Assembly (NCBI GenBank): GCA_043819135.1
Contig: JBDRFG010000107.1
Location: 31,002-95,001, forward strand
Length of the DNA stretch: 64,000 bases
Direction: 5' to 3'
Source of the DNA: Candidatus Eiseniibacteriota bacterium
GTDB taxonomy: Bacteria; Joyebacterota; Joyebacteria; Joyebacterales; Joyebacteraceae
Below, one piece after another: positions 33,715 to 54,468 of the stretch. The position numbers and the translations under genes were made by a program. Positions within the stretch are counted from its first letter, which is position 1; each line of letters begins with the position of its first letter. A model generated the notes under the pieces. The model was given only the letters and a program-made list of their open reading frames with translations. It did not search any database and had not been told where the DNA came from.

Positions 33715-36410
33715 GAGAAGCCCATCTTCTCGAGGTGACGGTTCACCTTGGCCTCCAGGTCGGCCACGCGGCTCACCATCTGCGGCAACGGGTCTTCGTA
33801 GCGTTCGGCCAGTTCCCTAACGCGGAGGGCAAGTTGCCGGCTGACGCGATTCATCTCACCCCGTACGGCGACATCGAGTGCAGTGAGCCACTTGTCGTCC
33901 GCAACCAGCATCTTTGTCTGAGACTCGGTGAGCTCCGGATACCTAGCGTAGACCCGAGCGTCTAGGTCGGCCCTGGCCTCCTTGATGCGCTTCCTGAGAT
34001 CGGCCTCGTCGGCATTGAGCTTCAGCAACTCGCTGAGCACCTTGAGTTCGACAAGTTCCTCGTTGTCTGGATCCCGCTGAAGGAGGAGAGCGATCTCTTT
34101 CTGCGCACTCTCAAACAGCCGTTTCGTTTCCACCTTTGAATCCCGTGCGGCTTCGGCGGCGTCAAGATACTCGCTCAGAGTGCTTCTCTCAGCCGAGTTC
34201 TGCGTTGACTTCGCCCTCTTGCTGACCGCCGCCTTGGTGATATTGCCCCTGCTATTCCTCAACGCCTGCAGGCGGGAGTCATCCTTCAGCTCTGCGACTC
34301 GAAGCGCGTTCGCCTCTCGCAGTTCGGTGGCTTTGCGGAACGCATCATACTCACCAGGGTTGAATCTGCTCCAGGCAGACTCCAGTGCCTCGTTCCACGC
34401 CGCTTGGGCATCGGTCTTGTTGGCAACCGTACAGAGAATGCCCTCATCCCCACCGTGCTCTTCCTCCAGCTCAGTGATCTTCGCGGTGATGTCCTCCAAA
34501 TCGGCCGCGAGTTGATCGATGTCTTCCTGCTCGCTGGCAAAGTAGCGGGCGACAATGAGAGCCTTGGGAATGAGGTCACAAGTCCAACCCTTGTCCCTCT
34601 CCTTGCCCTTCTTGTCCGTGACAAGGACACGCGTGGTTTCGGCCTGCCATCCGTCGGCGGCGACGAGGTAGCAGTCATCCTGCATGGTCTCGTCCCAGTA
34701 GTCCATCAGGCACTGATAGATGTCGTAGGGATCGACGAGTGACTTGCCAGCATAGTGGGCAAGCAGGCCCTCGGACAGTGCAGTGATGACCTCCTTGGGA
34801 TGGCAGTCGACCGTCAACGCCTTGAGCGGCGCGGCGTTCGTCCGCCGCCACGCGGCGAAGTGAGCGTTCATGTCAGCGGCGAACGAGGTGAATTCGGGGT
34901 GCTCATAGATGGCGGACTCGATGTCCGGCTTCTCCAAGCAGAGATTGACGTAGCCGGGGCGGCTTTCTTCGAATAGGGTGTGCCGGAGCTGCGGGCAGAC
35001 GGCCCAGTAGTGCTGCAGCGCGTCGATTTCGGCTGCGGGGATGCCGCCCTGTAGGTGGCCTGCGATGTCCTGCAGGTCCTCGGGAGTCTGGCTGTCGATG
35101 TAGCGCGGCAGGTTGAGGTTGAACTCGTTTTGCTCGATCTCCGTGAAGGGGACCATGCGCGAGTACTTCGGGACGTCGAGTCGTTTGTTGAAGACATCCA
35201 CAATCTTGTGTATGTCCCGGGAGCGCAGACGGTTCTTCGGACCTTCCTTCATGAAGCCGCCGCTGGCATCAATCATGAAGATGCCCTTGCTGGCCTGGGC
35301 GTCCTTCTTGTCTATGACCACGATGCAGGCGGGAATACCGGTGCCGTAGAAGAGGTTGACGGGCAGGCCGATGATGCCCCTGATGTAGCCCTTGCGCACG
35401 AGAGCGCGGCGGATGTCGGCTTCGGCGTTGCCGCGAAACAGCACACCGTGAGGCAGGATGCACGCACCCTTGCCGGTGCTCTTCAGGGAGCGGACGATGT
35501 GCAACAGGTAGGCGTAGTCACCCTGTCTAGTGGGCGGCACGCCAAAGGACTTGAAGCGCTCGAAGGGGTCACTCCGAGGATCGAGGCCGTTGCTCCAGCG
35601 CTTGTCGGAGAAGGGCGGATTAGCGACGACGTAGTCGAAGGTCTTGAGAGTGTCGCCGTCCTTGAACTTGGGATTGGCCAGCGTGTTGCCCTGCGCGATC
35701 AACGCGGTCGGGTTGTTGTGCAGGATCATGTTCATCCGTGCGAGGCCGCTGGTGGCTTCGTCTTTCTCCTGCCCGTAGAGCGTGACGGCAGTGCCAGCCT
35801 CGTCGCCAACCTTCAGAAGCAGCGAACCTGAACCGCAGGTGGGGTCGTACACGGTGGTGGAGGCGCTGGTCTCCGCGTCTCGGATGCCGCTGATCTGCGC
35901 CATGATGCGGCTGACCTCGGCGGGAGTGTAGAACTGCCCCTTGCTCTTGCCGCTTTCGGTGGCGAAGTGGCGCATCAGATACTCGTAGGCGTCACCCAAG
36001 ATGTCATCGTCGTCAGCTCGGTTCTTGGAGAAATCGAGCGCGGGGTTCTCGAAGATGGCGACGAGGTTTGTGAGCCTGTCCACCTTCTCCTTGCCGCTGC
36101 CGAGCTTGGCGGCGTCATTGAAGTCCGGGAAACCGGAGAGCTTGTTGACATTGGCCAGTGGGGCGATGATCTTCTTGTTGATCTGGTCGCCGATGTCGCT
36201 CTTGCCCTTCAGGGCGACCATGTCCGCGAAGCTGGCGCCGGGCGGGATTGTGATAGGCGCGTATCGCTGACCGGCGTACTTGTCACTGACGTACTTGATG
36301 AAGAGCAGAACGAGGACGTAGTCCTTGTACTGGCTCGCATCCATGCCGCCGCGGAGCTCGTCGCAGCTCTGCCACAGAGAGCTATAGAGCTCGGATTTCT
36401 TCAGGGCCAT
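33705..36410 (-). CDS. hsdM: Type I RM methyltransferase subunit, long form
   Basis: GQFYTP, YDPTCGSGSLL, VANPPF, LPHGVLFRG. Confidence 0.97.
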   Translation of the reverse strand: MALKKSELYSSLWQSCDELRGGMDASQYKDYVLVLLFIKYVSDKYAGQRYAPITIPPGASFADMVALKGKSDIGDQINKKIIAPLANVNKLSGFPDFNDAAKLGSGKEKVDRLTNLVAIFENPALDFSKNRADDDDILGDAYEYLMRHFATESGKSKGQFYTPAEVSRIMAQISGIRDAETSASTTVYDPTCGSGSLLLKVGDEAGTAVTLYGQEKDEATSGLARMNMILHNNPTALIAQGNTLANPKFKDGDTLKTFDYVVANPPFSDKRWSNGLDPRSDPFERFKSFGVPPTRQGDYAYLLHIVRSLKSTGKGACILPHGVLFRGNAEADIRRALVRKGYIRGIIGLPVNLFYGTGIPACIVVIDKKDAQASKGIFMIDASGGFMKEGPKNRLRSRDIHKIVDVFNKRLDVPKYSRMVPFTEIEQNEFNLNLPRYIDSQTPEDLQDIAGHLQGGIPAAEIDALQHYWAVCPQLRHTLFEESRPGYVNLCLEKPDIESAIYEHPEFTSFAADMNAHFAAWRRTNAAPLKALTVDCHPKEVITALSEGLLAHYAGKSLVDPYDIYQCLMDYWDETMQDDCYLVAADGWQAETTRVLVTDKKGKERDKGWTCDLIPKALIVARYFASEQEDIDQLAADLEDITAKITELEEEHGGDEGILCTVANKTDAQAAWNEALESAWSRFNPGEYDAFRKATELREANALRVAELKDDSRLQALRNSRGNITKAAVSKRAKSTQNSAERSTLSEYLDAAEAARDSKVETKRLFESAQKEIALLLQRDPDNEELVELKVLSELLKLNADEADLRKRIKEARADLDARVYARYPELTESQTKMLVADDKWLTALDVAVRGEMNRVSRQLALRVRELAERYEDPLPQMVSRVADLEAKVNRHLEKMGFSWK

Positions 36411-36718
36411 GTGCGATTCGCTCCTAGGACGGCGGGTCCTTGTGTCGTGTCCCTAGATTCGACGGCGTCTGACCTGTTGAGGAGCTTCAGATCTTGTCCG
36501 CATCTCGGCGACTTCCTATCGGAAACGATACCAGCCGCTGATGCTCTGCTTCAATCTGACTGCTTCACAAGTCGAGTTCAGCTCCCATAGCGGCTGTTGT
36601 TAGCGCTCGGCTCTCATCTTGCGCAAGCCAGAGCCCTGGATGACCTGTCTCCCGATTATATGCCCCCCACCTTCTGGTTGTCGAGTCTGTCCGGAGGTGC
36701 TACCACCCGCACGTCGCT

Positions 36719-37576
36719 TCAGGATTCTCCGAGCAACCTGCTGATCCAGAGCAGGGACTCAGGGTAGTCCTCGGCATCCAGCACAAACTCCTGTCCTCTT
36801 CCGACCGTACGCAGCCTCACCCATTCGCCAAGCTCCTCCCAGCGGCCGCGAGACGCATGATAGCTCAGCACCGAGTTCCGCCCACGTGGGCTGAACCACG
36901 CCGGCAGCTTCCACACGCTCCGCGTCTGCCCGGGTTCCGTCAGCTGCAGCCTCGGGCTGTAGTCCCCAAGGATCCCTGCCCCGTGGACACCTACGTCGCG
37001 ACCGTCGACTGTGGCTTGGGCAGCCGAAACGTAGACCACGTCCTTCGAAGGGTGCGTCTTGCGACTCGCGTGAGGATGGTACCTCGCCCAGGCCGGCATT
37101 ACGCCTGTGTCCGCAGCGCTCACGACTCTGTCAACCTGGAGCCACCCAAACAGCATGTGAATATCGGGAGACCCGGAAGCGTATCTGAGTTCCCCTTTGA
37201 AGAGCTCTGTCTGTCTGAACCATCCGTAGAACAGGAACAGATCTCCGGCGCCCACTCCCATTCCCTCCAGATGGCTTTGGGCGGAGCCCGATTGCCCGAA
37301 CAGAGGGCGCCAGCCAACTTCTCTCTCCAGGCTGTTGCTGTCGAGGTCAGGATCCAAGTGCGCCAGGCTGTCTGCTGGGACTCTGCCTCGAGAGAGTCTC
37401 TCGACGACCGCACCTAGGTCAAATCCGTCACACGAGATGGAGCTAAAGGGTACCGAGCCCGAGTCCTCTGACCGGTCTGGAATCGGAAGTGAGCACAGTC
37501 GTCCGGATGGCAGAATGGGACTTGGAATCCCGCCGGAAGATGAGTCGAATCCCTTCCTGCTGAGGATGATCTTCAT
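36719..37576 (-). CDS. Nucleotide modification-associated domain 3 (Nmad3) protein
   Basis: MKIILSRKGFDS...PSPI...LPIP, HLDPDL, GDLFLFYGWF, RGQEFV. Confidence 0.8.
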   Translation of the reverse strand: MKIILSRKGFDSSSGGIPSPILPSGRLCSLPIPDRSEDSGSVPFSSISCDGFDLGAVVERLSRGRVPADSLAHLDPDLDSNSLEREVGWRPLFGQSGSAQSHLEGMGVGAGDLFLFYGWFRQTELFKGELRYASGSPDIHMLFGWLQVDRVVSAADTGVMPAWARYHPHASRKTHPSKDVVYVSAAQATVDGRDVGVHGAGILGDYSPRLQLTEPGQTRSVWKLPAWFSPRGRNSVLSYHASRGRWEELGEWVRLRTVGRGQEFVLDAEDYPESLLWISRLLGES

Positions 37577-38136
37577 CCGCTGCAACGCCTCTTCCTATGG
37601 ACTTGAAGTGACGACTCCAGACCGTCCCCGCAGGGTGCTCCGTGCTGACCGATCTCCCAACTAGACTCAAGCCAGCCGGCGAAGTCGCGTATGAACTCCT
37701 CTGTGAAGTCGCTGCGATGTCCTGGCCCGCGTTTCTCGAAGGGATGACGGAGGTTCCCTGCAGGCAAGCCACTCAGGTCGGGTGCGTTGCGGCCGAAGTA
37801 GTAGAAGAAGGAGGAGATTAGCGCGTAGCGCTCATGCAAATGTGCGTCTCTCGCCTCGTTGTCTCTCCGTCCTCTGAACCTAGCGTCTTGGTGGTACTCT
37901 CTGAGTGTTGGCTTCTCCTCGACGCGCATCGCGTATATGAGCTTGCCATGTCCCGCACTTACTCGTAAGTCTGCTCCACTAGTTCCCGCGACCCAATCGC
38001 CGACTTCTGCAAGCTCTATGATGTTCTTCCGGCCTCGGCGGCCACACTTGCACTTCGCGAGCGTGCAGAATCCTCCCGCAGGGTTTGGGGCATATCCGAA
38101 GTCGTGCTGAACGACATATGAGAAGAGCTTCGACAC
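37573..38136 (-). CDS. Nucleotide modification-associated domain 2 (Nmad2) protein
   Basis: FSYVVQHDFGYAPNP..CTLAKCK, GDWVAG, LIYAMRV, FYYFG; ATGA overlap with Nmad3. Confidence 0.8.
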   Translation of the reverse strand: MSKLFSYVVQHDFGYAPNPAGGFCTLAKCKCGRRGRKNIIELAEVGDWVAGTSGADLRVSAGHGKLIYAMRVEEKPTLREYHQDARFRGRRDNEARDAHLHERYALISSFFYYFGRNAPDLSGLPAGNLRHPFEKRGPGHRSDFTEEFIRDFAGWLESSWEIGQHGAPCGDGLESSLQVHRKRRCSG

Positions 38137-38940
38137 CGCGCTTTCCGTTGTCAGGATTCGGTCCAGCCTACTCGTCTTCTTCGGGAAGCAGAGTCCTCTC
38201 TTTGCTGCCCTGCTCTCCCATCCGCTCAGCCCACAGCGCCCTAGCGCACAGGCGCGCAAACAAGCGCTCTGCTGCTAGCAGGTCCGCTGGTTCGTCCACG
38301 TGTATGCACTTCAAGCGTCGCCGGATAGAGAATCTGTCCGATGCGCTAGACACTCCTGTCCCCCCTCCGTCCGAGGGTGAGTTCGGCTGCCGCCACAGGT
38401 CCGAGCAACGCTCCACTTGGCAGAAGACCCAATCGTCCCATTAGCTGCGCAGCCAATCCGTGGTGAAGTCACACTGCGGAATCAGCGGCGGCAAGCGGAG
38501 CACGATCAATACACGAACAGCTTGGCCAGTGTCGGCCGTATTGGAGTCACCGGTTCCGACACCCCCACGATTACGGCGGTGCGGGTGAGAAAGCGACCAG
38601 CTCGTGGGATCGCCAGTCCGGCTCCTCGCGGCTGGGGAAGAAGCTGGTCCAGCATGTTCAGCTCTGAGATGAGGTTGCTCTGGGAACCGCGCTCCACAAG
38701 GCACTGGGACTCGAAGAGACACATCGAACGCGCGGCTGCCTAGTGGAGTCCTTCACAATCGTGGGGGAGCGAGTCTCAGCCGGAGAAGCCGCTTCCGTAG
38801 CGTCATGGGCAAGAGCGAGCACAATCCCTCATGTGGCACAGAACTCAAGCATCGACAAAGCCGCTCCTGTTGCTGCACTGACAGGTACCCTCTGCACCTC
38901 TTCATCTTTCGGCTCAATCCTAGTGAGTCCCTTCTCCCAT

Positions 38941-40437
38941 CTAATCAGCGGCATCGTTTGCGAGGCGGATGCCCTCACTCTGACACCAGTCAGCCAGCAC
39001 TGCCTCCTGGTCGGATGCCTCACTCAGTCGATCTACCCAAACACCGATTAGGCTCTCCCTGTCCGGTGGGGCGGGGTCGAAGAAGCGTGACGCCGCCGCA
39101 TGTCCTCGGAAGCCGGAAACGCTCTTCCTAGGATACGTGTAGAATCGGTGCATGAATGCCGCGTCCATGGCTATGGTGAACGCTGACTCGATAGCGCTTG
39201 AGTGTACCGTCTCCGGCTGTATTCGCGTGCCGCCAAGGTGTCTGTAGTTCGTGATCGGCATGACTACGCATCCGACCCTATCGGCGGGGCGCCCGTCGAG
39301 AGCCATCTTCACGCGCAGATCCTCGGCGTGCAGCAGAATGCTGGCCTCGCACAGGCCACCCAGAAAAACACCTGCTTGCCCAAGCTCCCATGGCCTCGTC
39401 AATCGGAGGCTCTTCCGCCCCAGGAAGTGCCTTTTCGCACCGAGCGCTGCCTGGCACAGTAGCCGTCCTCCCGATAGCTCATAGACTGACAGCTGGTCTT
39501 CCAGACGCACTGCAGCGCTTCTCCCCTCGAATCTAGACCAGGCCAGCGCGTTGGTTCTGTCACTGTTCTCGAACGCGTCGGCGCTCTCGGATAATCGGAA
39601 GCGTCGCCACTCGCCGAGACCACAGACCCACGCCCTTTTCGAATCGGTGCAGTCCAAGACCAACCACAGGACGTCTTCGTGGGCACCCACAACGTCTTCG
39701 CAGTTCTGCACTAGGTTCAGCGCTCCGCGGAATCCGGCTTCCTCACCGAATGTGTAGACCACTGACATGTTGATGGGATAACCACCCATAGCAGCCTCGG
39801 TGAGACACGCCGTGGCAACCGACACTCCAGCTGCGTTGTCTATGCCCCACGAGACTACATCTCCATTGTCCAGCGAACGTACGTCCTCGCCTGGGAAAAA
39901 CTCGTGATGAGCTGTGATCGGCCCTGCAGGGTCATCCAGGAACCTCTGACTGTCAGCATCAACTTCGATGAGCACCCACGACGGGCGGCTTTCCCCTGAA
40001 AGAGTCTTGTTGATTTCGAGGATCCTGCCCGTTGCTCTCTCACACCGGTAATCGCTTCCGATTGAGACGACCACTCGTGTGCCCTTGCGCTCGGACTCGA
40101 TCTTCTGTCCATTCAGGTTTTGACCTTCTATGATGACCGAATCCTCACACGACTCGACTCGATCAAGAAGATAGCCCTCTCTGTCCGTGTGCGCTACCAG
40201 CACAGTCCTGCGACCCGAGCCGGCATCCCCTGTCCAGCTCACTGCGAGCTGGCAGTTCCCCACGAATGCGATCCGTAGCTGTCCCGGGCTGACTCCGCCA
40301 CTGACAACCCTTGCCCAGTGCTCTCTGAGGAGCCAGTCGTACAGCCGCATCTCCGCGCCTGTGACCGAAGGCACACCGCAGACCTCTCGCAGGAGCGGAA
40401 TCGCTCCCGAGTCGGTTTCCCTACTCCAGCTTATCAT
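38941..40437 (-). CDS. M42/M28-like zinc metallopeptidase
   Basis: PSVTGAE, LVAHTDREG, IDNAAG, GEEAGFRGA, LVLDC, YRH ligand pattern. Confidence 0.7.
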   Translation of the reverse strand: MISWSRETDSGAIPLLREVCGVPSVTGAEMRLYDWLLREHWARVVSGGVSPGQLRIAFVGNCQLAVSWTGDAGSGRRTVLVAHTDREGYLLDRVESCEDSVIIEGQNLNGQKIESERKGTRVVVSIGSDYRCERATGRILEINKTLSGESRPSWVLIEVDADSQRFLDDPAGPITAHHEFFPGEDVRSLDNGDVVSWGIDNAAGVSVATACLTEAAMGGYPINMSVVYTFGEEAGFRGALNLVQNCEDVVGAHEDVLWLVLDCTDSKRAWVCGLGEWRRFRLSESADAFENSDRTNALAWSRFEGRSAAVRLEDQLSVYELSGGRLLCQAALGAKRHFLGRKSLRLTRPWELGQAGVFLGGLCEASILLHAEDLRVKMALDGRPADRVGCVVMPITNYRHLGGTRIQPETVHSSAIESAFTIAMDAAFMHRFYTYPRKSVSGFRGHAAASRFFDPAPPDRESLIGVWVDRLSEASDQEAVLADWCQSEGIRLANDAAD

Positions 40438-42803
40438 AGGTCCTCGAGCAATTGATTGGTCCTACCGCGACTCACGACCTCATCTAGCAGTGCCTGGTGT
40501 GCCGAAACGAGTCCCTTGGTGCGATCAGAAATACGCGCCGTTCTCAATGCCGCGTCGAACCGCTCTCTTGTGACAGAGATGTACCGTGACCGGTTCGCAG
40601 CAGAAATGCGTGGGTCGGTGGCCCTCTTCAGGTAGTAGTAGCCCAGCGTGTCTTCCTCGTCTGCAGTCTTGTTGCTGTAACCCCTGAGTCTCTTGGCGTA
40701 TATCTGGCACATCCGGTCACTCATGCATGTGCGCGACTTCGTGTCTCGGCTCGCAGTTGAGAGGCCAGGTATCGGAGTGAGCCTTGCACGCGCATACAGG
40801 CAGTTGTTCGTCAGTGCTCTTCTGAGCCACCGCGGCACTTCAACGGCGTCGTGCCACGCATCCTCGGCCTCGCGCACGATGCTCGTCAACTCAGCCTCCT
40901 CAGAACCTTCCGCCAGCGGGAACTCGCCGAGAATCTCACCATGGTCCTCGATCCAGTCCAAGTGCAGAAGCAGCCATGCTCGAAGCAACTCCAACTTCAG
41001 AATCCTCTTCGTCACTGAGGAATCAGATGCCTTCGCCTCACCCCAAGCCCGACGGAAGACACCGTTGGCCGTGGCGCGAGCATGCTCAGCGAGCGCTACG
41101 TCCGCGCGCATCAGCCTCATCATCAACCACTCAGGAGTAAGCACGGCCTGATGGTCGTCGTCCTCAGCGGCATCCAGGAAGTAGGACAAGCGGTCAAACG
41201 CCCCGCACGCATAGAGCACTGAACGCATTACCCTGTCATAGGAGACTGGGGAGGCTAGCTTAGGAGCGCGTTCGCGGGCCCTGCTCAGCATGCTCTCCTG
41301 CTCGCTCTGCGATGGTGCCTGTCCAGTCCGCAGCTTGCGATAGAGGAGACCAAGTTCCCGCCTCGCTCCCGAGTCCTCCTCGTCAGAGAGCAGGATCTTG
41401 TCGGGCAGGTCTCGCACAGCGCTCCGGGCCAGTCCAAGTCGGCTGTGCCATGCGGCGTCCGCGAACTTCGCTGGATACCGAAGGCTGAGGTTCTGGATCA
41501 ACTCACCTATGCTCTCCAGGACGCGCCGCCGAATCCCCTCGCGCTCTTGCGTGAACTGCGTAGCATCTGTCACGTACGATACGAAGAACTTGATCGCGAG
41601 CTCCGAGGCGTCGCGTCTCTTTGGGGGCAGCCAAGTCTGTTCAGCTGCTACCAGTGTCCTCAGGTTGACGATTTCATGTGAGACGCCCTCCGTAATCTCA
41701 TCAAGCAGTTTCCGCGAAGGAGTCTTCGAGGCTCGCAGTGCCTCCAGATTCGCGGCAACGTGCTCCCGACGGTCCTTCATGCGCGCCTGCGTGGCTTCCT
41801 CATTCGACCGGTTCCATACCAGACCAAGCTCGAAGAAGTACTGCCACGATCGCAGGATGGTCGGCACATGCCGCGATGTATGCCGATCCTGATAGACGTC
41901 ACTCACACAGATGAACTCGGGGGCGCTCTCCGCGATCACGCGAGCCATGTCCCGGCTCCGCGTGACGAACAGGAGCTGGCATCCGCGGTCATGGAGTGCT
42001 GGATTCAGAGTTGCAAGATACTGAAGAGCCTCGCCGTCTCGCGAGCGTGCGGCGGCGCTCTTCCCTGGAAGAGCCTCCTTCAGGGCCTCAGTCCAGTGCT
42101 CCTGCCCTCTGTAGTCGAAACCTGTCGTGTCAATGAGACCCGGGGCCACATCGTGCGCGTTCGCAAGGCGCGGGCCTGTCTCCTGCTTCCCTTGCCGCAG
42201 CAGGTGGTTGATGCCGTCGAGCGCCTTGTTCTCGTTCATCCTGGCGATCAAGAAGAAGCTCCCGAAGTGCTCTTTGATCCAATCCTCGATCCTCGCGCGA
42301 TCGATCCTCCGTAGCTCCTTCGCGAAACTCTCGGCATTCAGAGCATTCTCGCCTTTAAGTCTCTGGGCAATCGGGAGAATAGCAGCCAACGCTGGCGACT
42401 CAGAGAGACTCTCCAGTGTAAGTGCCTTGCGTGGATGGTCGATGTTCACGGCGAGTACGTTCGATAGCAGAAGTCGCACGAAGTGTGACATCTCCTCTTC
42501 ATAGGGAGGAAGAAGAAGCAGCTGAGGAAACGGGCTGCGGTCAAACAACACGGTCAGCGCGGCCTGGTGCGCAGCCGCCACCAAGTCCTCATCGAGAATG
42601 GCCCGTTCCATCGCGCCGACCACCGGAAGGACCCCTGTGGCGTAGGCATAGACCTCGGACCAGTCGACCGCGACAGTGATTCGCTCCGCGCTGTCCTGAG
42701 AGAACGGTGCAAGTTGCAGGTCGCGCCGCAGGAGGTAGAGACACCTCTGCTCCTCCTCCAAGTACTCCTGCAACCGCCGGTGCCGCTCAGCTAGCCCGCC
42801 CAC
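40434..42803 (-). CDS. Large hypothetical protein: putative PIN-like N-terminal domain and helical/TPR-like C-terminus (start uncertain, ORF open to 42911)
   Basis: VAVDWSE...LLPPYEEE...RDGEAL...LFVTRS acidic pattern; C-terminal DTLGYYYL...FDAAL. Confidence 0.5.
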   Translation of the reverse strand: MGGLAERHRRLQEYLEEEQRCLYLLRRDLQLAPFSQDSAERITVAVDWSEVYAYATGVLPVVGAMERAILDEDLVAAAHQAALTVLFDRSPFPQLLLLPPYEEEMSHFVRLLLSNVLAVNIDHPRKALTLESLSESPALAAILPIAQRLKGENALNAESFAKELRRIDRARIEDWIKEHFGSFFLIARMNENKALDGINHLLRQGKQETGPRLANAHDVAPGLIDTTGFDYRGQEHWTEALKEALPGKSAAARSRDGEALQYLATLNPALHDRGCQLLFVTRSRDMARVIAESAPEFICVSDVYQDRHTSRHVPTILRSWQYFFELGLVWNRSNEEATQARMKDRREHVAANLEALRASKTPSRKLLDEITEGVSHEIVNLRTLVAAEQTWLPPKRRDASELAIKFFVSYVTDATQFTQEREGIRRRVLESIGELIQNLSLRYPAKFADAAWHSRLGLARSAVRDLPDKILLSDEEDSGARRELGLLYRKLRTGQAPSQSEQESMLSRARERAPKLASPVSYDRVMRSVLYACGAFDRLSYFLDAAEDDDHQAVLTPEWLMMRLMRADVALAEHARATANGVFRRAWGEAKASDSSVTKRILKLELLRAWLLLHLDWIEDHGEILGEFPLAEGSEEAELTSIVREAEDAWHDAVEVPRWLRRALTNNCLYARARLTPIPGLSTASRDTKSRTCMSDRMCQIYAKRLRGYSNKTADEEDTLGYYYLKRATDPRISAANRSRYISVTRERFDAALRTARISDRTKGLVSAHQALLDEVVSRGRTNQLLEDL

Positions 42804-44050
42804 TGGAGTACCTCCGCCCGGTGAGACTTGACCTTCTTCACGACGTTCTTCACTACGTTCTGAAGCCCTTGGCTTTGATGACGTGTACGACTTATCATCT
42901 GCGTCACGCACTCCATCACAGAGTCCGGTATTTCGAAGAAGTAGCTCGGAGTTGATGAGTCGAGCAGATCCTCGGCAATGACATGACTGATAGCAGACTT
43001 GGTCATCCCTTCGGCGCGTAGCTCAGGCACAACACTGAATTGAACGATGCCTCGTCTTGCGGCTTCCTCCGTGAGATATCTGCACAGCGCCGTTCCCGCT
43101 TCCGGCTCTCGGAGAACGGCCTGCACTACTCGAGCAAGGTAGGTCGCCCGGTCATCCGGTAGATGCTCGAGGAGAGTCTCACCGATTATCGCCACCTGCT
43201 CAGCATCACCAGCTGCACGCCGAGCTGCGCTGATGAGGAGTTCATCCTTGAGTGGCGCGTGCCATGCGACTAGGCCGGCGTAGGTCTCCCCGGCAGCAGT
43301 TGAATCATGTAGCCACTTCTCAGCAGCCCCTGGATCCTCGCAGCTCGTGACAGCAGCAAACAGCCTTGTCATCAGAGCGCGACACGAGCCAAACAACGGC
43401 TGCAGGGCCTCAGCTTCCCTGAGCAACATCGCCCGTGTGAGCGCTCGGGCGCGATTGGCGCGTCCGGCCACCACAGCTACCAGCTCCCTGCGCACTCCTG
43501 ATGTGGTGGCAGCGGCGGCAAGGCGCACCCACTCACTCCCGAAACCCGCTCCTAGGCATTCTCCCTCAAGAGACGAAAACGCCTCATCGACGATTGCGAT
43601 TCTCGGCTGGTCGTCGAATAGACAGCGGAAGTAGTCTCTTGTCTCCCTGTGTTCAAGAAGTTCGGCAGGCGGACTATCGACGTCCGCAGGAAGCGCGTGT
43701 GAGTACATCAGATCCGCAAGGCGCTCGCGGATTCGAGCATCAACCAGCAGTTCCCGTAGGTCAGCGGCCGCCTCTGTCCGGACATCCGCTGCGGTTTCTC
43801 TATCTAGAACAATCAAGGCGAGTTGAAGACCCCCTGCGGCTTCCGTGGCCACGTGCAGTTCCTCTCGAACAGCACTGGCAGTTGTGTCATCCAGGAACAC
43901 AAGGTCGTGCGCATCGCGAAAGAGAACCTGCAGCTCACCAGCCCTTCTCAGGACCAGTTCGCCAGGAAGGTGTGCATGCAGGGAGAAGAGGGACTCCCCG
44001 TCAAGTATCACAGCAACACCAGCGACACCCGAGACTATGCCTTCCATCAT
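42791..44050 (-). CDS. Hypothetical alpha-helical protein
   Basis: Long ORF translationally coupled to both neighbours. Confidence 0.6.
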   Translation of the reverse strand: MMEGIVSGVAGVAVILDGESLFSLHAHLPGELVLRRAGELQVLFRDAHDLVFLDDTTASAVREELHVATEAAGGLQLALIVLDRETAADVRTEAAADLRELLVDARIRERLADLMYSHALPADVDSPPAELLEHRETRDYFRCLFDDQPRIAIVDEAFSSLEGECLGAGFGSEWVRLAAAATTSGVRRELVAVVAGRANRARALTRAMLLREAEALQPLFGSCRALMTRLFAAVTSCEDPGAAEKWLHDSTAAGETYAGLVAWHAPLKDELLISAARRAAGDAEQVAIIGETLLEHLPDDRATYLARVVQAVLREPEAGTALCRYLTEEAARRGIVQFSVVPELRAEGMTKSAISHVIAEDLLDSSTPSYFFEIPDSVMECVTQMISRTRHQSQGLQNVVKNVVKKVKSHRAEVLQWAG

Positions 44051-44904
44051 CCCACCTCTAGCGACACATCGAACCTGTCCAGATAGGCTCGCAGGTCTTT
44101 GATCCTCGACATCTGCGGTCGGTTCTTGAATCTACGGATGTGGACGGCCTGAACACTACGAATCGTAATCCGTCCCCAAACGTGAACCTCCACGAACACA
44201 TCGTCTTCAGGGATCTTCCCTTGCACCACCATTACATCAGGGAATCTATCCTCATGGCTTCCGGCCTCGATCTGGTCTGCGTGCTTCGCGACCGCGAGAC
44301 GCTTGCGGAGCCCCCAAGGAGCCCGGAAGCCGTGGGGCGGGTCAGCTGCCTCCTTTACAGTCAGCCGCAGCATCCACAGCACGTTGTTTTCGTGGAAGAC
44401 CGATGTTCTGTGGGCGATGAACTCGTCCCTCAATGTGACGAAGCAGTTGCCATAGCTGGCTACCCCAACTCCGCCCAAGGAGAGCGCTGCGAAAGATATG
44501 TCCTCTTTCCCGTACGGAAAAGTGGCTGATTCGGATATGTCTCGATATCTACCCCACTTGGATTCATCAGCTTGCCGCAGACCTGCACCCTGCAGCTTGT
44601 AGTAGTTCGGCTTGGCATCACGATCAGACTTCGCGATGAACTCGAACTGCTCGAAGCTCATCGCAATCACAGCCACGGAATCCGATTCCACGAGCGTTTC
44701 GAACCGCTTGACCTTGTCCTCAGCGCCTCGGGACTTGGCCCTTAACAGGGCGTCCTGATAGCGCGTCTCCAGAGCCTCCCGTTCATCCTTGGAATCGGCC
44801 ACCTCAACGTTGGGGTAAAGGCAAGGTCTCTCGCAGTGAGGGCACCTCAGCTCGGAAACGTGGAAGTCGTGTCCGCAGTACTTGCATGTTCTCTTGGTCA
44901 ACAT
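44047..44904 (-). CDS. Zinc-ribbon plus DUF3626-like (putative ADP-ribosyltransferase fold) protein
   Basis: CKYC...CPHC; FAALS..G..SYGNCFVTLR...RTSVF; FVEVHVWG. Confidence 0.55.
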   Translation of the reverse strand: MLTKRTCKYCGHDFHVSELRCPHCERPCLYPNVEVADSKDEREALETRYQDALLRAKSRGAEDKVKRFETLVESDSVAVIAMSFEQFEFIAKSDRDAKPNYYKLQGAGLRQADESKWGRYRDISESATFPYGKEDISFAALSLGGVGVASYGNCFVTLRDEFIAHRTSVFHENNVLWMLRLTVKEAADPPHGFRAPWGLRKRLAVAKHADQIEAGSHEDRFPDVMVVQGKIPEDDVFVEVHVWGRITIRSVQAVHIRRFKNRPQMSRIKDLRAYLDRFDVSLEVG

Positions 44905-45441
44905 CCGGACATACCCTCTTCTCGCCAGCATCGTGAGTCGAAGGGCTTCCGTGCTCCCAAGAGACTCAAACTCTGACGCGCTCAAGGGCACCATGAAACC
45001 GTCCAGACTCCACATAGTGAGGTTGATTCTACAATAGTGAGGTCTTGGCGTCAACTGATTCGCGCTTCCACCACATCACACTGGCTCTCAGGAGGACTCT
45101 CCGGGGGACTGTAGTGGTGGCAGCGGAGCCGGGTGAGCGGGAGCCGTGTGCAGGTTCGCCTCCTGGCCTGTCCCCCTCTCAGCATCCACACCCCCTTTCT
45201 AGAACGGAGGTTAGAGCCTCTCGGCCCAAGCGATCCGGCGCTACGGCTGAGAGACTTGTCGCGCCCGCCCTCCAGTTCGGTGCCAAGATGTTCAAAGATC
45301 CCGGAACTGGCTTCGCCTCAAGAAGCGACTCGAATGCAGTGAGGCGGCTTCGGTTCGGCTGCCCGAGCGAGCTTGCATGGTTCCTTCCTGGCGAGTGCAA
45401 GCGGGTACCGGCGACCGCAACCTTCAAGACGTGGGAGGCCC

Positions 45442-46992
45442 ATGAAACAAGCTGCCACCCGTGCCACCCGTGCCAAACGTTCCGAGAGCAGCAAGGGCTC
45501 CGGCGGTGCCAGCAAGAAGGCCCGCAAGATGGCGACGAAGGCCCACCCCAAGCCCGCCGAGAACGGCACTCAGGCGAGGCAAGAGGGAAGCTCGGCCCCC
45601 GACTTCCCGGTCCGTCTGCCCGGCAAGCTCGAGCACTGGCCCATCGACAAGCTCCGCCCCTACGAGCGGAACCCGAGGACTCACAGTCCAGATCAGGTCA
45701 CGAAGATCGCGGCCAGTCTACTGGAGTTCGGTTGGACTAATCCCATCCTCGTCGATGGCGAGGCCGGGATCATCGCTGGTCACGGCCGGGTTCTCGCGGC
45801 CCGCGAGCTCGGGATGACCATGGTCCCGGTCATCGAGCTGTCACACCTCAGCGAGGCCCAGAAGCGGGCGTATGTCATCGCCGACAATCGCCTAGCTCTC
45901 GACGCGGGGTGGGACGAGGACCTCTTGGCTGAGGAACTCAAGGCACTGGACGGCCTCGACTTCGATCTTCACCTGATGGGATTCGAGCTGGATGAGCTGC
46001 AAGTTCTTCTCGATGATGAGGTAGCCGAGGAGGTCGCTCCTCCCGAGCCTCCAGAGGAGCCCGTGACTCGGATCGGAGATCTCTGGATCTTGGGTGACCA
46101 TCGACTCCTGTGTGGGGACTCATCCGACGCAGCGGCCGTTGATCGCCTTCTTGATGGTGCGAAGGTACACCTAGTCAACACCGACCCTCCCTACAACGTG
46201 AAGGTCGAGCCACGTTCGAACAACGCAATCGCCGCGGGCCTTTCCAGCTTCCCTGCCGTGAAGAGCCCTGTCGAGGCGTCTGACGCCCAAGGTATGCACC
46301 ATCAGGGATTCGACCTGGCTCGCCACAAGACGAAGTCTAGGCCGACTGGGAAGATGCGCCCGAAGGACCGACCTCTCGTGAACGACTTCGTCACCGACGA
46401 GGCATTCGAGGAGATGCTCGGAGCCTGGTTCGGCAACATCGCCAGAGTGCTCCTACCCGGGCGGGCCTTCTACATCTGGGGCGGCTACGCGAACTGTGCC
46501 AACTACCCACCAGTTCTCAAGGCCAGTGGTCTCTACTTCAGCCAGGCGATCATCTGGGTGAAGGAGCACCCCGTTCTCACTCGGAAGGACTTCATGGGCA
46601 ACCATGAGTGGTGCTTCTACGGCTGGCGCGAGGGAGCAGCCCATCAGTTCTTCGGACCAACCAACGCAGTCGATGTGTGGGCGGTCAAGAAGGTGAACCC
46701 TCAGAGCATGATTCATCTCACCCAGAAGCCTGTCGAATTGGCAACTCGAGCGATCCGGTACTCATCCAAGCCAGGTGAGAGTGTACTCGACCTGTTCGGG
46801 GGCAGTGGAAGCACTCTTGTAGCTGCTGAGGAGAGCGGGCGCACATGCTTCTTGATGGAACTTGACCCGGCCTACTGCGATGTGATCGTGGAGCGCTGGC
46901 AAACGGTCACTGGAGACAAGGCCGTGCTCGAGGGAGAAGACCTGACCTCTGATGCCGTTGCCGCGCTTCGCAGACCCAAGCAGGACGAGTAG
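45442..46992 (+). CDS. ParB-domain DNA N6/N4 methyltransferase (phage type)
   Basis: PYERNPRTH, IIAGHGR, ADNRL, TDPPYN, QKPVEL, LDLFGGSGST. Confidence 0.92.
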   Translation: MKQAATRATRAKRSESSKGSGGASKKARKMATKAHPKPAENGTQARQEGSSAPDFPVRLPGKLEHWPIDKLRPYERNPRTHSPDQVTKIAASLLEFGWTNPILVDGEAGIIAGHGRVLAARELGMTMVPVIELSHLSEAQKRAYVIADNRLALDAGWDEDLLAEELKALDGLDFDLHLMGFELDELQVLLDDEVAEEVAPPEPPEEPVTRIGDLWILGDHRLLCGDSSDAAAVDRLLDGAKVHLVNTDPPYNVKVEPRSNNAIAAGLSSFPAVKSPVEASDAQGMHHQGFDLARHKTKSRPTGKMRPKDRPLVNDFVTDEAFEEMLGAWFGNIARVLLPGRAFYIWGGYANCANYPPVLKASGLYFSQAIIWVKEHPVLTRKDFMGNHEWCFYGWREGAAHQFFGPTNAVDVWAVKKVNPQSMIHLTQKPVELATRAIRYSSKPGESVLDLFGGSGSTLVAAEESGRTCFLMELDPAYCDVIVERWQTVTGDKAVLEGEDLTSDAVAALRRPKQDE

Positions 46993-46995
46993 GTC

Positions 46996-47559
46996 TTGGG
47001 CAAGAGCCGAAGTAAGACGCTGATCTCCCAGCGCGAGTACGCTCGTCGGCGTGGCATCTCCCACACGTCAGTCCAGCGCGCGGTCAAGGCCGGGCGAATC
47101 TCAATGGTGGATGGGAAGATCGACCCCAGACAGGCCGATCGCGAGTGGCAGCAGAACACGGACCAGAGCAAACCGAGAAACCGAGTCACCGGCAAGCCGA
47201 AGCGCACTCGCATCCAGGACGAGCCGTCAGAACCGATGGACTTCGCTGGGATGGATGGGGGCCGCGGAGGAGGAGGCGGTGCGTCCAACTACGCGAAGGC
47301 ACGTGCCGCCCGAGAGCTCTATCAGGCCCAGCTAACCAAGCTCCACCTCGACCGTGAGCGTGCCAAGCTGGTGCGCGCCGACCAGGTGAGAATCGCGGCC
47401 TTCAACGCGGCGAGAAGCGCGCGTGACAAGCTGATGGGGATACCCAATCGCGTGTCCGCTGTTCTGGCTGCAACAGATGACACTGAGGAGGTCCGGCGCA
47501 TTCTGGATGAGGAAATCGAGAGAATCTGTGTGGAGCTCTCAGAAGCTCCCTGGCACTGA
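46996..47559 (+). CDS. Terminase small subunit-like (Nu1-type HTH) protein
   Basis: SQREYARRRGISHTSVQRAVKAGRI; YAKARA...RDKLMGIPNR; follows ParB-MTase as in lambda-like packaging modules. Confidence 0.7.
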   Translation: MGKSRSKTLISQREYARRRGISHTSVQRAVKAGRISMVDGKIDPRQADREWQQNTDQSKPRNRVTGKPKRTRIQDEPSEPMDFAGMDGGRGGGGGASNYAKARAARELYQAQLTKLHLDRERAKLVRADQVRIAAFNAARSARDKLMGIPNRVSAVLAATDDTEEVRRILDEEIERICVELSEAPWH

Positions 47560-47647
47560 GGTGGGCCGGTTGGGTTAGAGAATGAGCAGACTGCCACAAA
47601 CAGGCTCGCAGGCTCCATGCGCTAATCAGGCTGCGGCACGCCCCGCT

Positions 47648-48571
47648 TCAATCCTCGGGACTCCGGTCAGAGGCGGCACGTTCGTTGAAGAAGCTTGGAG
47701 TGATCTTGGGCTGATCAGCCCACATACCCTCACGAATGTCGAAATCGTCCGGATTGAGAGCGTAGAGAAAGCGGTCGGCGTGAAAGGCCAGGACGCTGTT
47801 GTACCAGAGCAGATTCTCACGCGTGAGGTTCACTACTTCTCCTTCTGAAACTTCATACACTCCGCTGTCGATGATGGCCAACACCACGCGAGTGGAGAGC
47901 GCGAGCTGTAGAACGAGCCCTCTACACAGAAGCCCGAGATTCCCGTAGGGCCCCGCATCGACCTGATTGAACCTGATTGCCGGGCTATCCGAAGAGCAGA
48001 ATCTACTCCTGTCAGGGACTACGTGAAGTCGCCATGTGCGCTCGGCGAGCACGGGCCAGAACTCGGAGATTCGTGCCATGATGCGCAGGTGCATGTGCGC
48101 TCCATCCTCCCCTGCCGTTGACATCTGGTCACGCAACGACTGAGCGATTGGGCCAGACTCCTCAAGCTTCTTCCTAACGAGGTCTGGCATCGCCTCGACG
48201 GACCTCCTCGTCGCGGGGCTCCTGACACCTTGGACAACGACGAAGAGCGAGATGGCAGAGCGCTCCTCGGGAGTAAGAGACCGAGTGTCCTGGCTCTTGA
48301 GCAGCCTCGCGATGGCGGGGGCGGCCATACTCTCAAGTTGCGCGAGCCCAGGATCGATCGTGAGAACCATGTCCTCTCCGACGGCGGCCTCGTAGAACCT
48401 GTTCGAACACGCTACATCGTTCACGCTGGCCTCGAAGAGTCGGTCTTCGCGCAGGTCGAGAACTGCAAGCCTGTCCGACGTCAGCCCGTTCTTGGTTACC
48501 TCCCTGCTGAAGCGGCGCAGCAGGAACTGCGGGACATAGTGCTGTCGTGTTGCCAGTCCTTCACCGCTCAT
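47648..48571 (-). CDS. DUF4238 domain protein
   Basis: RQHYVPQFLLRRF, FCSSDSP motifs. Confidence 0.8.
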   Translation of the reverse strand: MSGEGLATRQHYVPQFLLRRFSREVTKNGLTSDRLAVLDLREDRLFEASVNDVACSNRFYEAAVGEDMVLTIDPGLAQLESMAAPAIARLLKSQDTRSLTPEERSAISLFVVVQGVRSPATRRSVEAMPDLVRKKLEESGPIAQSLRDQMSTAGEDGAHMHLRIMARISEFWPVLAERTWRLHVVPDRSRFCSSDSPAIRFNQVDAGPYGNLGLLCRGLVLQLALSTRVVLAIIDSGVYEVSEGEVVNLTRENLLWYNSVLAFHADRFLYALNPDDFDIREGMWADQPKITPSFFNERAASDRSPED

Positions 48572-48700
48572 GCTCGAACTCCGTCACCATGTGAGGATGC
48601 TCACGCTTTAGTCTAGTAGCCGCCCAGCCAAGAGCACTAGGTCGGCGCGACACCTGGCGCTCGTGTAGACCGGTGGCTGGACAGGCCGCTACGCTCGGCC

Positions 48701-49900
48701 CTAGAGCTGCCCCAGCTGTCCCTGGGCCGCGCGCCAGGACAGCGCGATGGAGATCAAGGCGAACCCCATCACCCGACGAAGTGCGGCCCGGTCACTCATC
48801 AGGTCTAGCTGTTCCTCAACCACGTGCATCATAGAGTTGCGGAGTCTGTAGGTGACATAGAGCGCAGATGCAGATGCGTCCACGCGCCGGGTTGCGCTGC
48901 CGAATCGTGCCAACTCTGTCTTCACCAGGTAGTTGAGTGTGCTCGCCTGATCCCATTTGCTGCCAGAGTACTGCTTCTCAATCGAGTTGAACGCGCTTGC
49001 GAGAGCCTTGTTCAACTGAATCATCTTGTTCAACTTCGGTCTTAGAGTACCGCCGCCCCCACCCTGCCAGTGAGTCAGGTTGCTCTCGAAGGAAACCAGC
49101 AGATCTGCGAGCGCTCGGACACGCTGAAGCTTGGCAGCATGAGAGTCAGGCCCGAGCTCGAGCGAGCGCGCTCTCCAGAATCCGAACAGCATCAGAATCG
49201 CGTCAGAGGCGCGCTGCGACAGGTGCTCCACCAAACCCACGAACTCCGCGTCAGTCAGCTGGGCGCCGAGCGCTGCACGATAGTCGCTCCCGTTCTCGCG
49301 CTGCAGGATCGGAAGCAGGTCATCCATTAGGAGTCTCTTTGCGATTCCCTGCCCCGTGATCAGCGCGCGCCCGGGAGTCCTGCCTGATAGCTCATCTTCA
49401 TCACCTGCAGCGTCGATGTACTGGGCGGCTTGGACGAGGTCTCCTACTTTGAAGTGGCAGAGCCCCACGTTGTAGAGGGGAGCACCCTTGTGTATGCGCC
49501 GGCCAATCCTCTGCTCTGACTCGGCTGTCAGCTGATGGAGACACTCAGTCCAGATCATGATCGGCAGAGTTAGGAACTCATGGTGGTCAATCGCGACGTC
49601 CACCAGTGCAGTGTGCGGAGCGAAGAGTGAGTCATCGTTGTTGCGCCATCTCTTCGCCTCGAGCTGCTTGAGGTTGCATGCAACCAAGCCACAAAGCTCC
49701 ATACCAAGCCGCTGCATTCTTCTCTCAGCCCCAACCAGGTGGGCTTCGAGCATAGGCACCGGATCAAGCCCTCGGCGTGTCCGTCGTGTGACGATTGCGA
49801 TAAGCCGACGAAACCGGACGTACTTCCGGAGACCGATTGTCTCAGCGAGAATCCGTGTTCCCAATCCTACATCTAGCTTCATCGGCCTGTAGGTGGTCAA
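48701..49900 (-). CDS. Hypothetical protein with TPR-like segment and C-terminal HEPN-like RxxxxH motif
   Basis: LYNVGLCHFKVGD; YRLRNSMMH; GGAGG RBS before TTG 49900. Confidence 0.55.
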   Translation of the reverse strand: MTTYRPMKLDVGLGTRILAETIGLRKYVRFRRLIAIVTRRTRRGLDPVPMLEAHLVGAERRMQRLGMELCGLVACNLKQLEAKRWRNNDDSLFAPHTALVDVAIDHHEFLTLPIMIWTECLHQLTAESEQRIGRRIHKGAPLYNVGLCHFKVGDLVQAAQYIDAAGDEDELSGRTPGRALITGQGIAKRLLMDDLLPILQRENGSDYRAALGAQLTDAEFVGLVEHLSQRASDAILMLFGFWRARSLELGPDSHAAKLQRVRALADLLVSFESNLTHWQGGGGGTLRPKLNKMIQLNKALASAFNSIEKQYSGSKWDQASTLNYLVKTELARFGSATRRVDASASALYVTYRLRNSMMHVVEEQLDLMSDRAALRRVMGFALISIALSWRAAQGQLGQL

Positions 49901-50038
49901 CTACTCCTCCCTTGACGGCGCAGCCCAACAGGTCGTTGAGCACCCACGGGGGTCAGAGCCAACGGGGAGTGTGAGGACGATCCCACCCACCCCGTCCATT
50001 CACAGGCGACGACTTCCCGAGGCCCTTGTTTCTGCGGA

Positions 50039-50863
50039 CTACGTACGCGCGTAGCTGTCTCCTCGCGGTGCTTCGTCGTCAATCGCAACAGGATCGCCAA
50101 TCCACTCGTGTTCCACTGACCATCGTTCGGGACGGTCCGGTCCTATGCGAAGCACTAGGAGAAACGGACACCGTCCCCCGTACCGATCGTACATGCGCTG
50201 CCATCTTGTTGCCAGGTAGTACCCGGCGCCGACCGTGGCTAGCTCTGTAAGACCCGCTGCCTGGAAGACGAAGCGCTTTCGTGGCACATCGTACACACGC
50301 TGAATGTACGCGTAGTGATCTCCCGAGACGTCATCCTCCCCTTCAATTACGATTCTCGCCTTCCCATCACTCTGGAAGCCGGCGCGCGATGGCAGGTCGG
50401 CCTCCACGTAGCGAGACGCCCAGCTGTACCACCAACTCCCCAGGGCGATGAACGGGTCCCTGGAATCCAGCATCTTCTGTGTTGGAGGAGCAGCAGTGAC
50501 ATCGACCTTCACGTCTGCGACCAGTAGCTTGCTTAGTATCCCGGGGCGATCAACCTGCCGAGGCAGTGGATAGCGGAACTGCTCACGAATCCGATCTGCG
50601 ACGGATGCTTCGCTAAGAGCGACTGCGGTACCTGAGTACATGCCTGCACTACCCTCAATCGTCAAGGAGCCACCCTGGGCAACCTGAATGTTGGAGAGGT
50701 AGACTACGAGTCTTCTGCTTCCCTTGATTCCGAAGAAGGGGATTATCGAGCGACGTCGCCAGTGAACCAGCAACGTCCACGCAATCGCCAAGAAACCGGC
50801 CCAGAAGACAGCGTTCCCAACAACGCCGGCCAGGACGCTCAGTCCGAACATGAGGACCCCCAA
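50039..50863 (-). CDS. Hypothetical membrane-anchored protein
   Basis: N-terminal hydrophobic segment, AGGAG RBS. Confidence 0.55.
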   Translation of the reverse strand: MGVLMFGLSVLAGVVGNAVFWAGFLAIAWTLLVHWRRRSIIPFFGIKGSRRLVVYLSNIQVAQGGSLTIEGSAGMYSGTAVALSEASVADRIREQFRYPLPRQVDRPGILSKLLVADVKVDVTAAPPTQKMLDSRDPFIALGSWWYSWASRYVEADLPSRAGFQSDGKARIVIEGEDDVSGDHYAYIQRVYDVPRKRFVFQAAGLTELATVGAGYYLATRWQRMYDRYGGRCPFLLVLRIGPDRPERWSVEHEWIGDPVAIDDEAPRGDSYART

Positions 50864-50967
50864 TCATCTCCTATGCGCATACGCAGCAATCCCCAGCACA
50901 TGCGATCAGTTGGAGCGTGTGTGAACCCATCTAGAGCTGCCACACGGACTCGAGAGGGCATCGCCGC

Positions 50968-52668: not shown

Positions 52669-52697
52669 GCTCTCTTGCCCCAGCTGAAGCTTCGGCC

Positions 52698-52823
52698 ACC
52701 CAACGGACCAAGCGTCATCCGCGAGCGTCGAGGGTGGCGAAGGGTGTTCTGGCTGACGCGGAGCGGCAGCCCCCTGCAGATCCAGTTGCAGCCAAGCTCG
52801 TCAGGTGCATACGCTAGTCAGGT
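52698..52823 (-). other. attC-like site (126 bp)
   Basis: Minus strand ACCTGAC-tagcgtatgcacctgacgagc...gctcgcggatgacgcttggtcc-GTTGGGT, overlapping the stop of the upstream gene. Confidence 0.65.
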
Positions 52824-53701: not shown

Positions 53702-54140
53702 CCAGCTCCAATCCAAGTTGCCACAGACTAATGGTCCGGCGACACCCAACTGCGTCTAGGACGCCTAGCATGATGATGGTCATCGTGCGGGAGCCAAGCA
53801 CGACGGGACCGGCGGGTTGTGCTTCCCCATGATCGCGAGCCTGTCAAACCGCCTGAGGGACTTCTCGGTTCCGGGTGGCCCTTGGCCCATCGCGCCCCTG
53901 ACGATGCGAGAGGAATGCGGGGCGTTGCACACAGCACCCCACAACTGCACCTTGGACCACGCGGAGATTCCCTTCTTCTGCTCCTATTACCCGGCGGATG
54001 TCCAGTTTAGCATCCTTACGACGATGCCGCTAGCGGCAAGTCCGAGGACATGACAGACCCACGGCTGTGGTGGCACGAGGCTCCCACGTGGACTTGGCGG
54101 TGCTGCGTCCGTCGCGGAGCTCTCGAGGCCAGCTTCGGCC

Positions 54141-54406
54141 CTTCACCCCTTCACCCACGCTCACACGCACGCATGACCGAGGGCAGAGGTGAAGGGTCGG
54201 AGAGGCAAATCGTGGGCGGGGGTGAACTGGTGAAAGGGTGAATGGAGAAGAGAAGTAGTAGTACTTCATGTACCTACGTACACCGCTCTTCACCCTGTTT
54301 CACTTGGAGATAGTCTCCTGCGCGACAGGGGGTGAAAGGGTGAAAGGGCGGTCTGATCGTACGTCTGGCGGGGAGTTACGCGGATTCATCGGGCGGACAT
54401 TTCACC
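54141..54406. repeat. Iteron cluster, probable replication origin of the element
   Basis: About eleven GGTGAA/TTCACC-type repeats in both orientations around an AT-richer spacer, just downstream of the primase gene. Confidence 0.7.
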
Positions 54407-54468
54407 TGTCGCCCGTCCTCCCCTCTCTCTTGCGGATTGTTAGGCGCCACTGGCTGCTGTGGGCGAAT

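Follow-up and report, generated by a model that had tools for sequence, protein, structure and literature searches.

The locus studied here lies in a window of 64,000 nucleotides (nt) from Candidatus Eiseniibacteriota bacterium (assembly GCA_043819135.1, contig JBDRFG010000107.1, positions 31,002 to 95,001 of the forward strand) and holds four minus-strand genes, g1 to g4. An initial annotation, made from the sequence alone, had described them as a coupled operon for an ADP-ribosyltransferase (ART)-like protein, a helical protein, a PIN-like/TPR protein and an M42 peptidase. The four open reading frames (ORFs) are present as described (Table 1), and each runs into the next, with an ATGA overlap of 4 nt between g1 and g2, one of 13 nt between g2 and g3, and again ATGA between g3 and g4. 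The locus is real, but the finding is a cassette of g1 and g2 in which the tail of g2 captures genes, and not an operon of four genes.

Table 1. Coordinates in the window of the four genes, the two parts of g2, the promoter candidate and the surrounding island (aa, amino acids).
Feature	Coordinates	Strand	Length (aa)	Description
g1	44047..44904	-	285	ORF read from the window; zinc ribbon and SopF/OspC/DUF3626-like ART fold with E239-x-H241; within the core pair, the predicted effector
g2	42791..44050	-	419	ORF read from the window
g2 conserved N-domain, ~aa 1-232	43355..44050	-		Beta-meander and bundle of helices; the obligate partner of g1
g2 linker and variable tail, ~aa 233-419	42791..43354	-		Boundary from the alignment; same slot as the TPR or captured domains in homologues
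g3	40434..42803	-	789	GTG start at 42803 behind GGAGG, the start on record; PIN-like acidic motifs by eye (D47, E102-104, D256, T281/D285), helical C-half; local
g4	38941..40437	-	498	ORF read from the window; M42/M28-clan metallohydrolase-like (H83, D200, E232/E233, D262, H400); local
Sigma-70-like promoter candidate	45054-45026	-		TTGACG-17-TAGAAT, 10/12 match, ~120 nt upstream of g1; consensus match only
Prophage-derived island	27103..62659 (ends approximate)	.		PHROGs, Pfam, lower GC

Other g1 loci were collected with a 12-row alignment, given that the 121-row alignment of the family is too diverse for a locus search; this gave 57 loci from genomes and the best 80 of 201 from metagenomes, a collection biased toward the subfamily of g1 that the alignment represents. 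The genome of one relative and one Rhizobium plasmid were added, while the g1 sequence alone, used as query, found no locus in genome contigs. The 140 loci were reduced to 128 at 97% identity, and 115 of these have at least 300 nt downstream. In 114 of the 115 the N-domain of g2 lies directly 3' of g1, and its start codon mostly overlaps the stop codon of g1. In the reciprocal direction, g1 is found upstream in 21 of the 21 loci retrieved with a profile of the g2 domain. Neither g3 nor g4 has a tblastn match in the 140 other g1 loci. Conservation of the gene neighbourhood, a check proposed by the initial annotation, holds for g1 and g2, which are a conserved, obligate two-gene unit, and fails for g3 and g4. 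The sole locus lacking the g2 partner (L120, 189-2800) codes for an ART fused to an N-terminal TIR domain, followed by two further TIR genes; P0046 seems, by eye, to hold a similar fusion.

The pair is patchily distributed, occurring in 3 of 401 genomes of a sample of the phylum and in 19 of 251 genomes of one family, and g1 was not found in the 24 genomes searched of the family of the present host. Named hosts belong mainly to the Acidobacteriota, with others in the Myxococcota, Planctomycetota, Verrucomicrobiota and Pseudomonadota. At Pyrinomonadaceae-like loci the pair is fixed at one site behind prfA, while the tails vary. No description of the pair was found in the literature searched, including the available parts of PMC8195603 and PMC11598138, and a listing in subscription journals or supplements, which lie outside that scope, is possible. 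In the same literature DUF3626 appears in the context of Salmonella only.

The initial annotation had read g1 as a zinc ribbon followed by a DUF3626-like, ART-type domain with a candidate catalytic glutamate, and this is borne out. The cysteines of the ribbon, C21 and C24, are invariant across the 121 aligned members, as are R121, G152, W197 and the candidate glutamate E239, and H241 is kept in 115 of them. The AlphaFold (AF2) model of g1 has a predicted local distance difference test score (pLDDT) of 96, and it was matched by Foldseek to SopF with an E value of 3.5e-6. In the VIA comparison SopF reaches Z 14.7, with a root-mean-square deviation of 3.5 over 228 residues, followed by OspC3 (Z 10.8), CopC (10.4), DarT (8.4-9.0) and Tpt1 (8.6), and the structural ranks 1 to 10 are ART-fold proteins throughout. 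The sequence identity to the SopF/OspC/CopC enzymes is 7-14%. In the available text of PMC9239266, E325/H327 of CopC and E326/H328 of OspC3 are given as essential for catalysis; matched by motif, E239-x-H241 of g1 would be the equivalent pair. The resemblance to DUF3626 is explained by SopF, the structural relative of g1, which contains DUF3626 according to the part of PMC6682159 available. The profile of this family (PF12294) matches 0 of the 121 members at E 0.01, and g1 is a structural relative of DUF3626 rather than a member by profile.

A profile built from 6 homologues recovers 1426 representatives of the g1 family at 50% clustering. Searches of sequences in the PDB with g1 returned zinc-finger noise only, and no relative was found in the viral contigs and phage records searched. 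By structure, relatives were met on toxin carriers of the MuF and RHS types, and BFVD contains g1-like folds both from phage MuF/minor capsid proteins and from giant viruses that infect protists, which points to a larger clade of SopF-like ARTs that has no name yet. By analogy the substrate may be a protein, as for the nearest folds SopF, OspC and CopC, or a nucleic acid, as for DarT, and the zinc ribbon and the many conserved arginines and lysines of g1 allow a target of the DarT type.

The product of g2, previously described simply as helical, is the actual partner of g1, and its N-domain combines a helical bundle with a beta-meander. The AF2 model of this domain, of about 230 residues, has pLDDT 92 and gave no clear structural match, the best being VIA Z 6.1 with unrelated helical proteins, which does not in itself prove a new fold. 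No NCBIfam family matches any of 100 members of the domain, and no NTPase family was found in g1 or in the g2 N-domain. Three positions are near-invariant, namely D82 (99 of 100), R90 (97 of 100) and Q147 (95 of 100).

What follows this domain is variable. The tails scanned numbered 91 (candidates of at least 300 aa, de-duplicated, from the 128 loci); 60 are of the TPR type, 23 carry other domains, 7 have no identified domain, and 1 is not a g2. Among the 23 are sigma-70 regions (5, plus 1 weak), ribosomal protein S2 (2), phasin (2), a treble-clef finger (2) and a Fis-type helix-turn-helix (HTH; 2), and the following occur once each: RecA, Hsp70, a response regulator, a WcaJ-like transferase, a nonribosomal peptide synthetase (NRPS), a radical SAM protein, CHAT, a metallophosphoesterase and DUF2383. 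The E-x-H/Q motif of g1 is intact in all 23 of these loci. Among the TPR-type g2 (L006-L130), the repeat number varies widely, with complete proteins of ~460-1024 aa, and each array lies between a pre-TPR helical region and a C-terminal cap, both of them conserved. In one genome with hundreds of NRPS modules, the g2 N-domain continues into a fused NRPS that measures at least 2600 aa (L029/L136). Another locus (L050:9608-10816) carries a 403-aa tail with neither a Pfam family nor a paralogue in its own genome.

When 11 tails were compared with their own genomes, 9 had a stand-alone relative, four of them at 73% identity or more. The S2 tail is 92% identical to the native rpsB, which stays beside tsf, and the Hsp70, treble-clef finger and phasin tails are 83%, 83% and 73% identical to the own-genome copies. 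The matches are lower for the tails with NRPS (up to 61%), WcaJ (57%), the Fis-type HTH (45%), locus L045 (44%) and the metallophosphoesterase (33%). At the DNA level, in five pairs examined, the homology begins at the native start codon or close to it, and for two of the pairs it ends exactly at the stop codon. The ratio of nonsynonymous to synonymous substitution rates (dN/dS) between tail and native copy is 0.07-0.20 over 100-520 codons. Several tails are extra copies of genes of their own genome under purifying selection. The synonymous changes in the tails go toward the lower GC content at third codon positions of the cassette, which suggests that they accrued after capture. Misassembly was considered as the source of the fusions and ruled out, given that the copies have diverged from the native genes and keep the reading frame.

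In a tree of g1 and the g2 N-domain (94 rows, with partial and duplicate loci left out), the non-TPR tails stand at the tips among TPR relatives; the S2 tail arises twice and sigma-70 in five separate places, showing that tail swaps recur independently. The captured copies carry changes of their own. The RecA copy begins at profile position 28 and is missing the N-terminal segment that a native RecA has. In the Hsp70 and S2 copies, signature motifs that we take to be functional contain differences from the native proteins. The worn RecA, Hsp70 and S2 copies look decoy-like.

Two sister loci with treble-clef captures (L032, 9569-9925, and L088) have different tail junctions, which hints at the route of capture; the ribosome-binding site of the donor was apparently included and apparently translated in frame. 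On plasmid pRL9b4 of Rhizobium leguminosarum 9B (L004:9974-12350, NZ_CP050098.1), a g2 homologue of 510 aa follows g1, and its in-frame tail is what the annotation calls rpsB; the strain with this plasmid is a cultured carrier of the S2-tail form.

The tail of g2 in the window has no Pfam family over the cut-off, no phage match and no paralogue in its own genome, which is 92% complete; the missing paralogue is what would be expected if the island came from another host. It was also considered as a worn TPR-type region, and this failed, since by comparison it is not of the TPR type. The tail together with g3 and g4 may possibly be a captured operon, its first gene having become the domain in the tail slot by fusion.

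The other two genes, g3 and g4, are likely co-transcribed local additions to the pair. Word searches, which cover 0.55-1.75 times the query length, found no homologue of g3; 0 of 401 genomes carry one, no plasmid matched, and g3 has no Pfam match, PF20698 included. Two Atlas clusters without names resemble it, at 0.96 and 0.94, and PIN-TPR-GreABC reaches only ~0.76; the Atlas model has a pLDDT of 0.54. The PIN identity of g3 is a guess from its motifs. The M42 assignment of g4 gained a weak match to PF05343, over the cut-off with E 9e-6 but confined to 64 of 498 residues, and a single homologue at 31% identity that has H83, D200, E232/E233, D262 and H400 in common with it. These residues fit the ligands of two metals and the catalytic Glu of an M42 peptidase; the role that we give to each is presumed from the motifs of the family. 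Searches of sequences in the PDB gave no match to g4, nor did one further search. Sequence downstream of a complete g2 is available at 70 loci; an ORF of at least 150 aa follows in close coupling at 9 of them, none of these ORFs is shared, and three of the nine are broken continuations of the TPR region. A conserved four-gene system is therefore unsupported. The peptidase had been cast as controller of the toxin or reverser of its modification; g4 was found beside the pair at no other locus, and the lack of g3 and g4 at the other g1 loci, together with the lack of a common third gene, makes it unlikely as a general regulator or eraser of the ART.

The reading that we prefer, and to which we give almost an even chance, is that g1 is an ART toxin held by the N-domain of g2 and released when the tail, as sensor or decoy, is engaged by a protein of an invader. 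It draws on the pairing found in both directions, the ART fold, the conserved E-x-H, the swappable tail, the duplicate tails and the recurrent swaps. The N-domain would bind the ART and keep the enzyme off; we infer the physical binding, the toxicity and the direction of this control. The tail, be it an array of TPRs or a bacterial gene captured as a copy, would act as sensor or decoy, and its engagement by an invader protein would switch the ART on. The triggers may be proteins of phages or competitors aimed at S2, RecA, Hsp70 or sigma factors, and the outcome would be growth arrest. The TIR-fused exception L120, the MuF and RHS carriers of structural relatives and the patchy presence (19 of 251) count as a link to immunity. 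A more specific form is possible, although we rate it clearly short of even: a self-baiting decoy immunity in which the cell's own genes (rpsB, recA, hsp70, those for sigma factors and phasin) are copied time after time into the fixed slot of the adaptor and blunted, and their engagement by proteins of phages or rivals is coupled to a SopF-like ART.

Several observations weigh against this reading. Most homologues lie outside defence islands: among 145 neighbour proteins at 41 loci, 10 match PADLOC at 1e-15, the AbiE pair of L126 being the one clear system among them; 24 loci occupy one housekeeping site after prfA. The tails with phasin, WcaJ, NRPS, radical SAM and DUF2383 are unlikely phage targets. 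In 5 of the 11 tails compared with their own genomes the identity is just 33-61%, another 2 of the 11 have no real paralogue there, as is the case for the tail in the window, and some g2 are short or broken. Furthermore, dN/dS against the native copy cannot place the selection on the fused branch, and the tree comes from a quick LG+G4 search and has long branches.

Other explanations were weighed against the same evidence. The tail could be an address label, such that the N-domain of g2 activates the ART and the tail delivers it to a substrate such as the ribosome, RNA polymerase, a RecA filament or a TPR-bound invader protein. The nearest folds do need a protein activator (ARF for SopF, calmodulin for CopC), the OspC family selects its substrates through C-terminal repeats according to the part of PMC9239266 available, and many tails are subunits of large complexes. 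Nonetheless, very different targets would have to be modified by one clade of enzymes whose conserved residues are the same, the N-terminal segment is missing from the RecA copy, and constitutive delivery to essential machines needs another switch, for which no third gene is conserved, so that we consider this explanation unlikely. The pair could instead be a selfish cassette resembling a toxin-antitoxin, in which the TPR tail is dispensable, the swaps are accidents of recombination and the tail stays intact only for the stability of the antitoxin. That the swaps are recent and at the tips of the tree, that short or truncated g2 exist, that the tails include arbitrary-looking genes and that defence neighbours are few would all fit. 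This is nonetheless improbable, given that whole domains are taken, in many cases nearly from the native start codon through to the stop, that dN/dS remains low over the length of the copies, and that classes recur (S2, sigma-70, phasin, treble-clef finger), though truncation by a stop codon would be an easier accident.

An explanation based on signalling rather than defence is that the ART modifies its own partner, the near-invariant Arg90 or Gln147 of the N-domain being the switch for the fused domain. It accounts for the conservation of these residues and of D82, agrees with the modification of arginine by OspC and CopC (PMC9239266, in the part available) and with the fixed chromosomal site in one family, but no conserved eraser gene lies nearby and the patchy distribution and the TIR-fused exception do not suit it, which leaves it very unlikely. 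We give equally little probability to a four-gene system at the window locus, in which the M42-like hydrolase would control or reverse the action of an ART and a PIN toxin. Three overlapping junctions, one promoter-like site ahead, the retained metal ligands of g4 and the defence-island setting speak for it; set against these are the absence of g3 and g4 from the 140 other loci, that of a common third gene from the 70 complete ones, and the PIN assignment of g3, which is at motif level.

By comparison with known systems, the pair likely works as a toxin-antitoxin defence with an ART would if an integrated decoy were added to it. SopF, OspC and CopC, the closest folds to g1, with the E-x-H motif seen in CopC and OspC3, are type III effectors in animal cells, whereas g1 is from environmental bacteria, has an N-terminal zinc ribbon and an obligate cognate partner gene, and lacks, in its 285 aa, the C-terminal ankyrin domain of OspC and CopC. 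With DarTG and CmdTAC (the latter as described in the available text) the pair shares a small operon with an ART-fold toxin, but none of g1 to g4 has a PADLOC match at E 0.1, and g2 has no match to a macrodomain or NADAR eraser or to a SecB chaperone, while its tail is swappable. The resemblance to integrated-decoy receptors such as the plant paired NLRs (e.g., RRS1; PMC11702601, in part) lies in varied copies of host proteins on a constant scaffold, in those receptors copies of proteins targeted by invaders and in g2 found in 23 of the 91 tails. Unlike plant NLRs and bNACHT11, the pair has no NLR/STAND ATPase, and its output would be an ART. For bNACHT11 mimicry is merely hypothesised in the available part of PMC11702601, whereas the baits of g2 are literal recent duplicates of own genes. 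The conflict systems of Kaur et al. (2020, 2021) also combine a constant core with variable fused domains, in similar taxa (Acidobacteriota, Myxococcota, Planctomycetota), and inactive enzyme copies have been proposed as decoys in them (PMC7159879, in the part available). Their cores are MoxR-vWA or GTPase modules with effector-associated domains, and the available text describes neither an ART-partner pair nor S2 or RecA fusions. On the features compared, the pair is not a member of DarTG, CmdTAC, the NLR/STAND or the MoxR/GTPase ternary systems. As for the local genes, g4 resembles the M42 aminopeptidases over the short PF05343 segment only, and g3 shares PIN-like motifs and a helical half with the TPR-GreAB-C-PIN proteins but not the PF20698 match.

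If the preferred reading is correct, the cassette would be a bacterial counterpart of plant integrated-decoy receptors, built on another scaffold and acting through an enzyme. It would also be a modular sensor in which the fused domain sets the specificity. The catalogue of captured tails would then list host proteins attacked by invaders, including phage targets in barely cultured phyla, and the g1 family would be cell-internal kin of the SopF/OspC effectors. Whatever the function, this is an obligate two-gene family in which the ART has more than 1000 representatives and the partner has acquired housekeeping genes again and again, in captures recent enough to be traced to the donor gene within the same genome. 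Capture by g2 also explains stray annotations such as the plasmid-borne 'rpsB' of Rhizobium leguminosarum, and the cultured S2-tail strain makes the family testable.

The surroundings of the four genes were also examined. No minus-strand terminator-like site was found in 38200-45500, and promoter-like sites number 2 against 1.3 expected, so that the candidate upstream of g1 is weak alone. No RNA run was listed as containing the locus; short pieces from sequencing runs, at an identity of at least 99%, match parts of g1, g3 and g4, with g3/g4 as the sole bridged junction. That no named system fits the combination, as the initial annotation had remarked, agrees with PADLOC (at E 0.1) and NCBIfam, in which no family names any of the four genes; Pfam and PHROGs likewise name no family for g1 to g3. 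The defence island beside Nmad and type I restriction-modification (RM) genes that it had described is there, with Nmad2 and Nmad3 supported by Pfam and the RM genes (29399-36410) assigned from their translations, but the island as a whole is prophage-derived. It is bounded approximately by a recombinase (~27 kb) and a serine integrase (62.7 kb), has a GC content of ~0.59 against 0.64 genome-wide, and holds, by PHROGs and Pfam, phage genes for the serine integrase, Sak4, SSB, Prim-Pol, a terminase small subunit, a ParB-methylase and the recombinase, with type I RM, Nmad2/3 and DUF4238 as defence cargo.

The ParB-methylase, terminase small subunit, Prim-Pol, Sak4, SSB and serine integrase belong to remnant phage modules at 45373-47559 and 54469-62659, the terminase small subunit having no large subunit next to it downstream. 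These modules flank orphan cargo genes at 47648-53749, one of them with DUF4238. The Nmad2-Nmad3 pair (36719-38259) shares its strand with the type I RM genes and lies immediately upstream of them.

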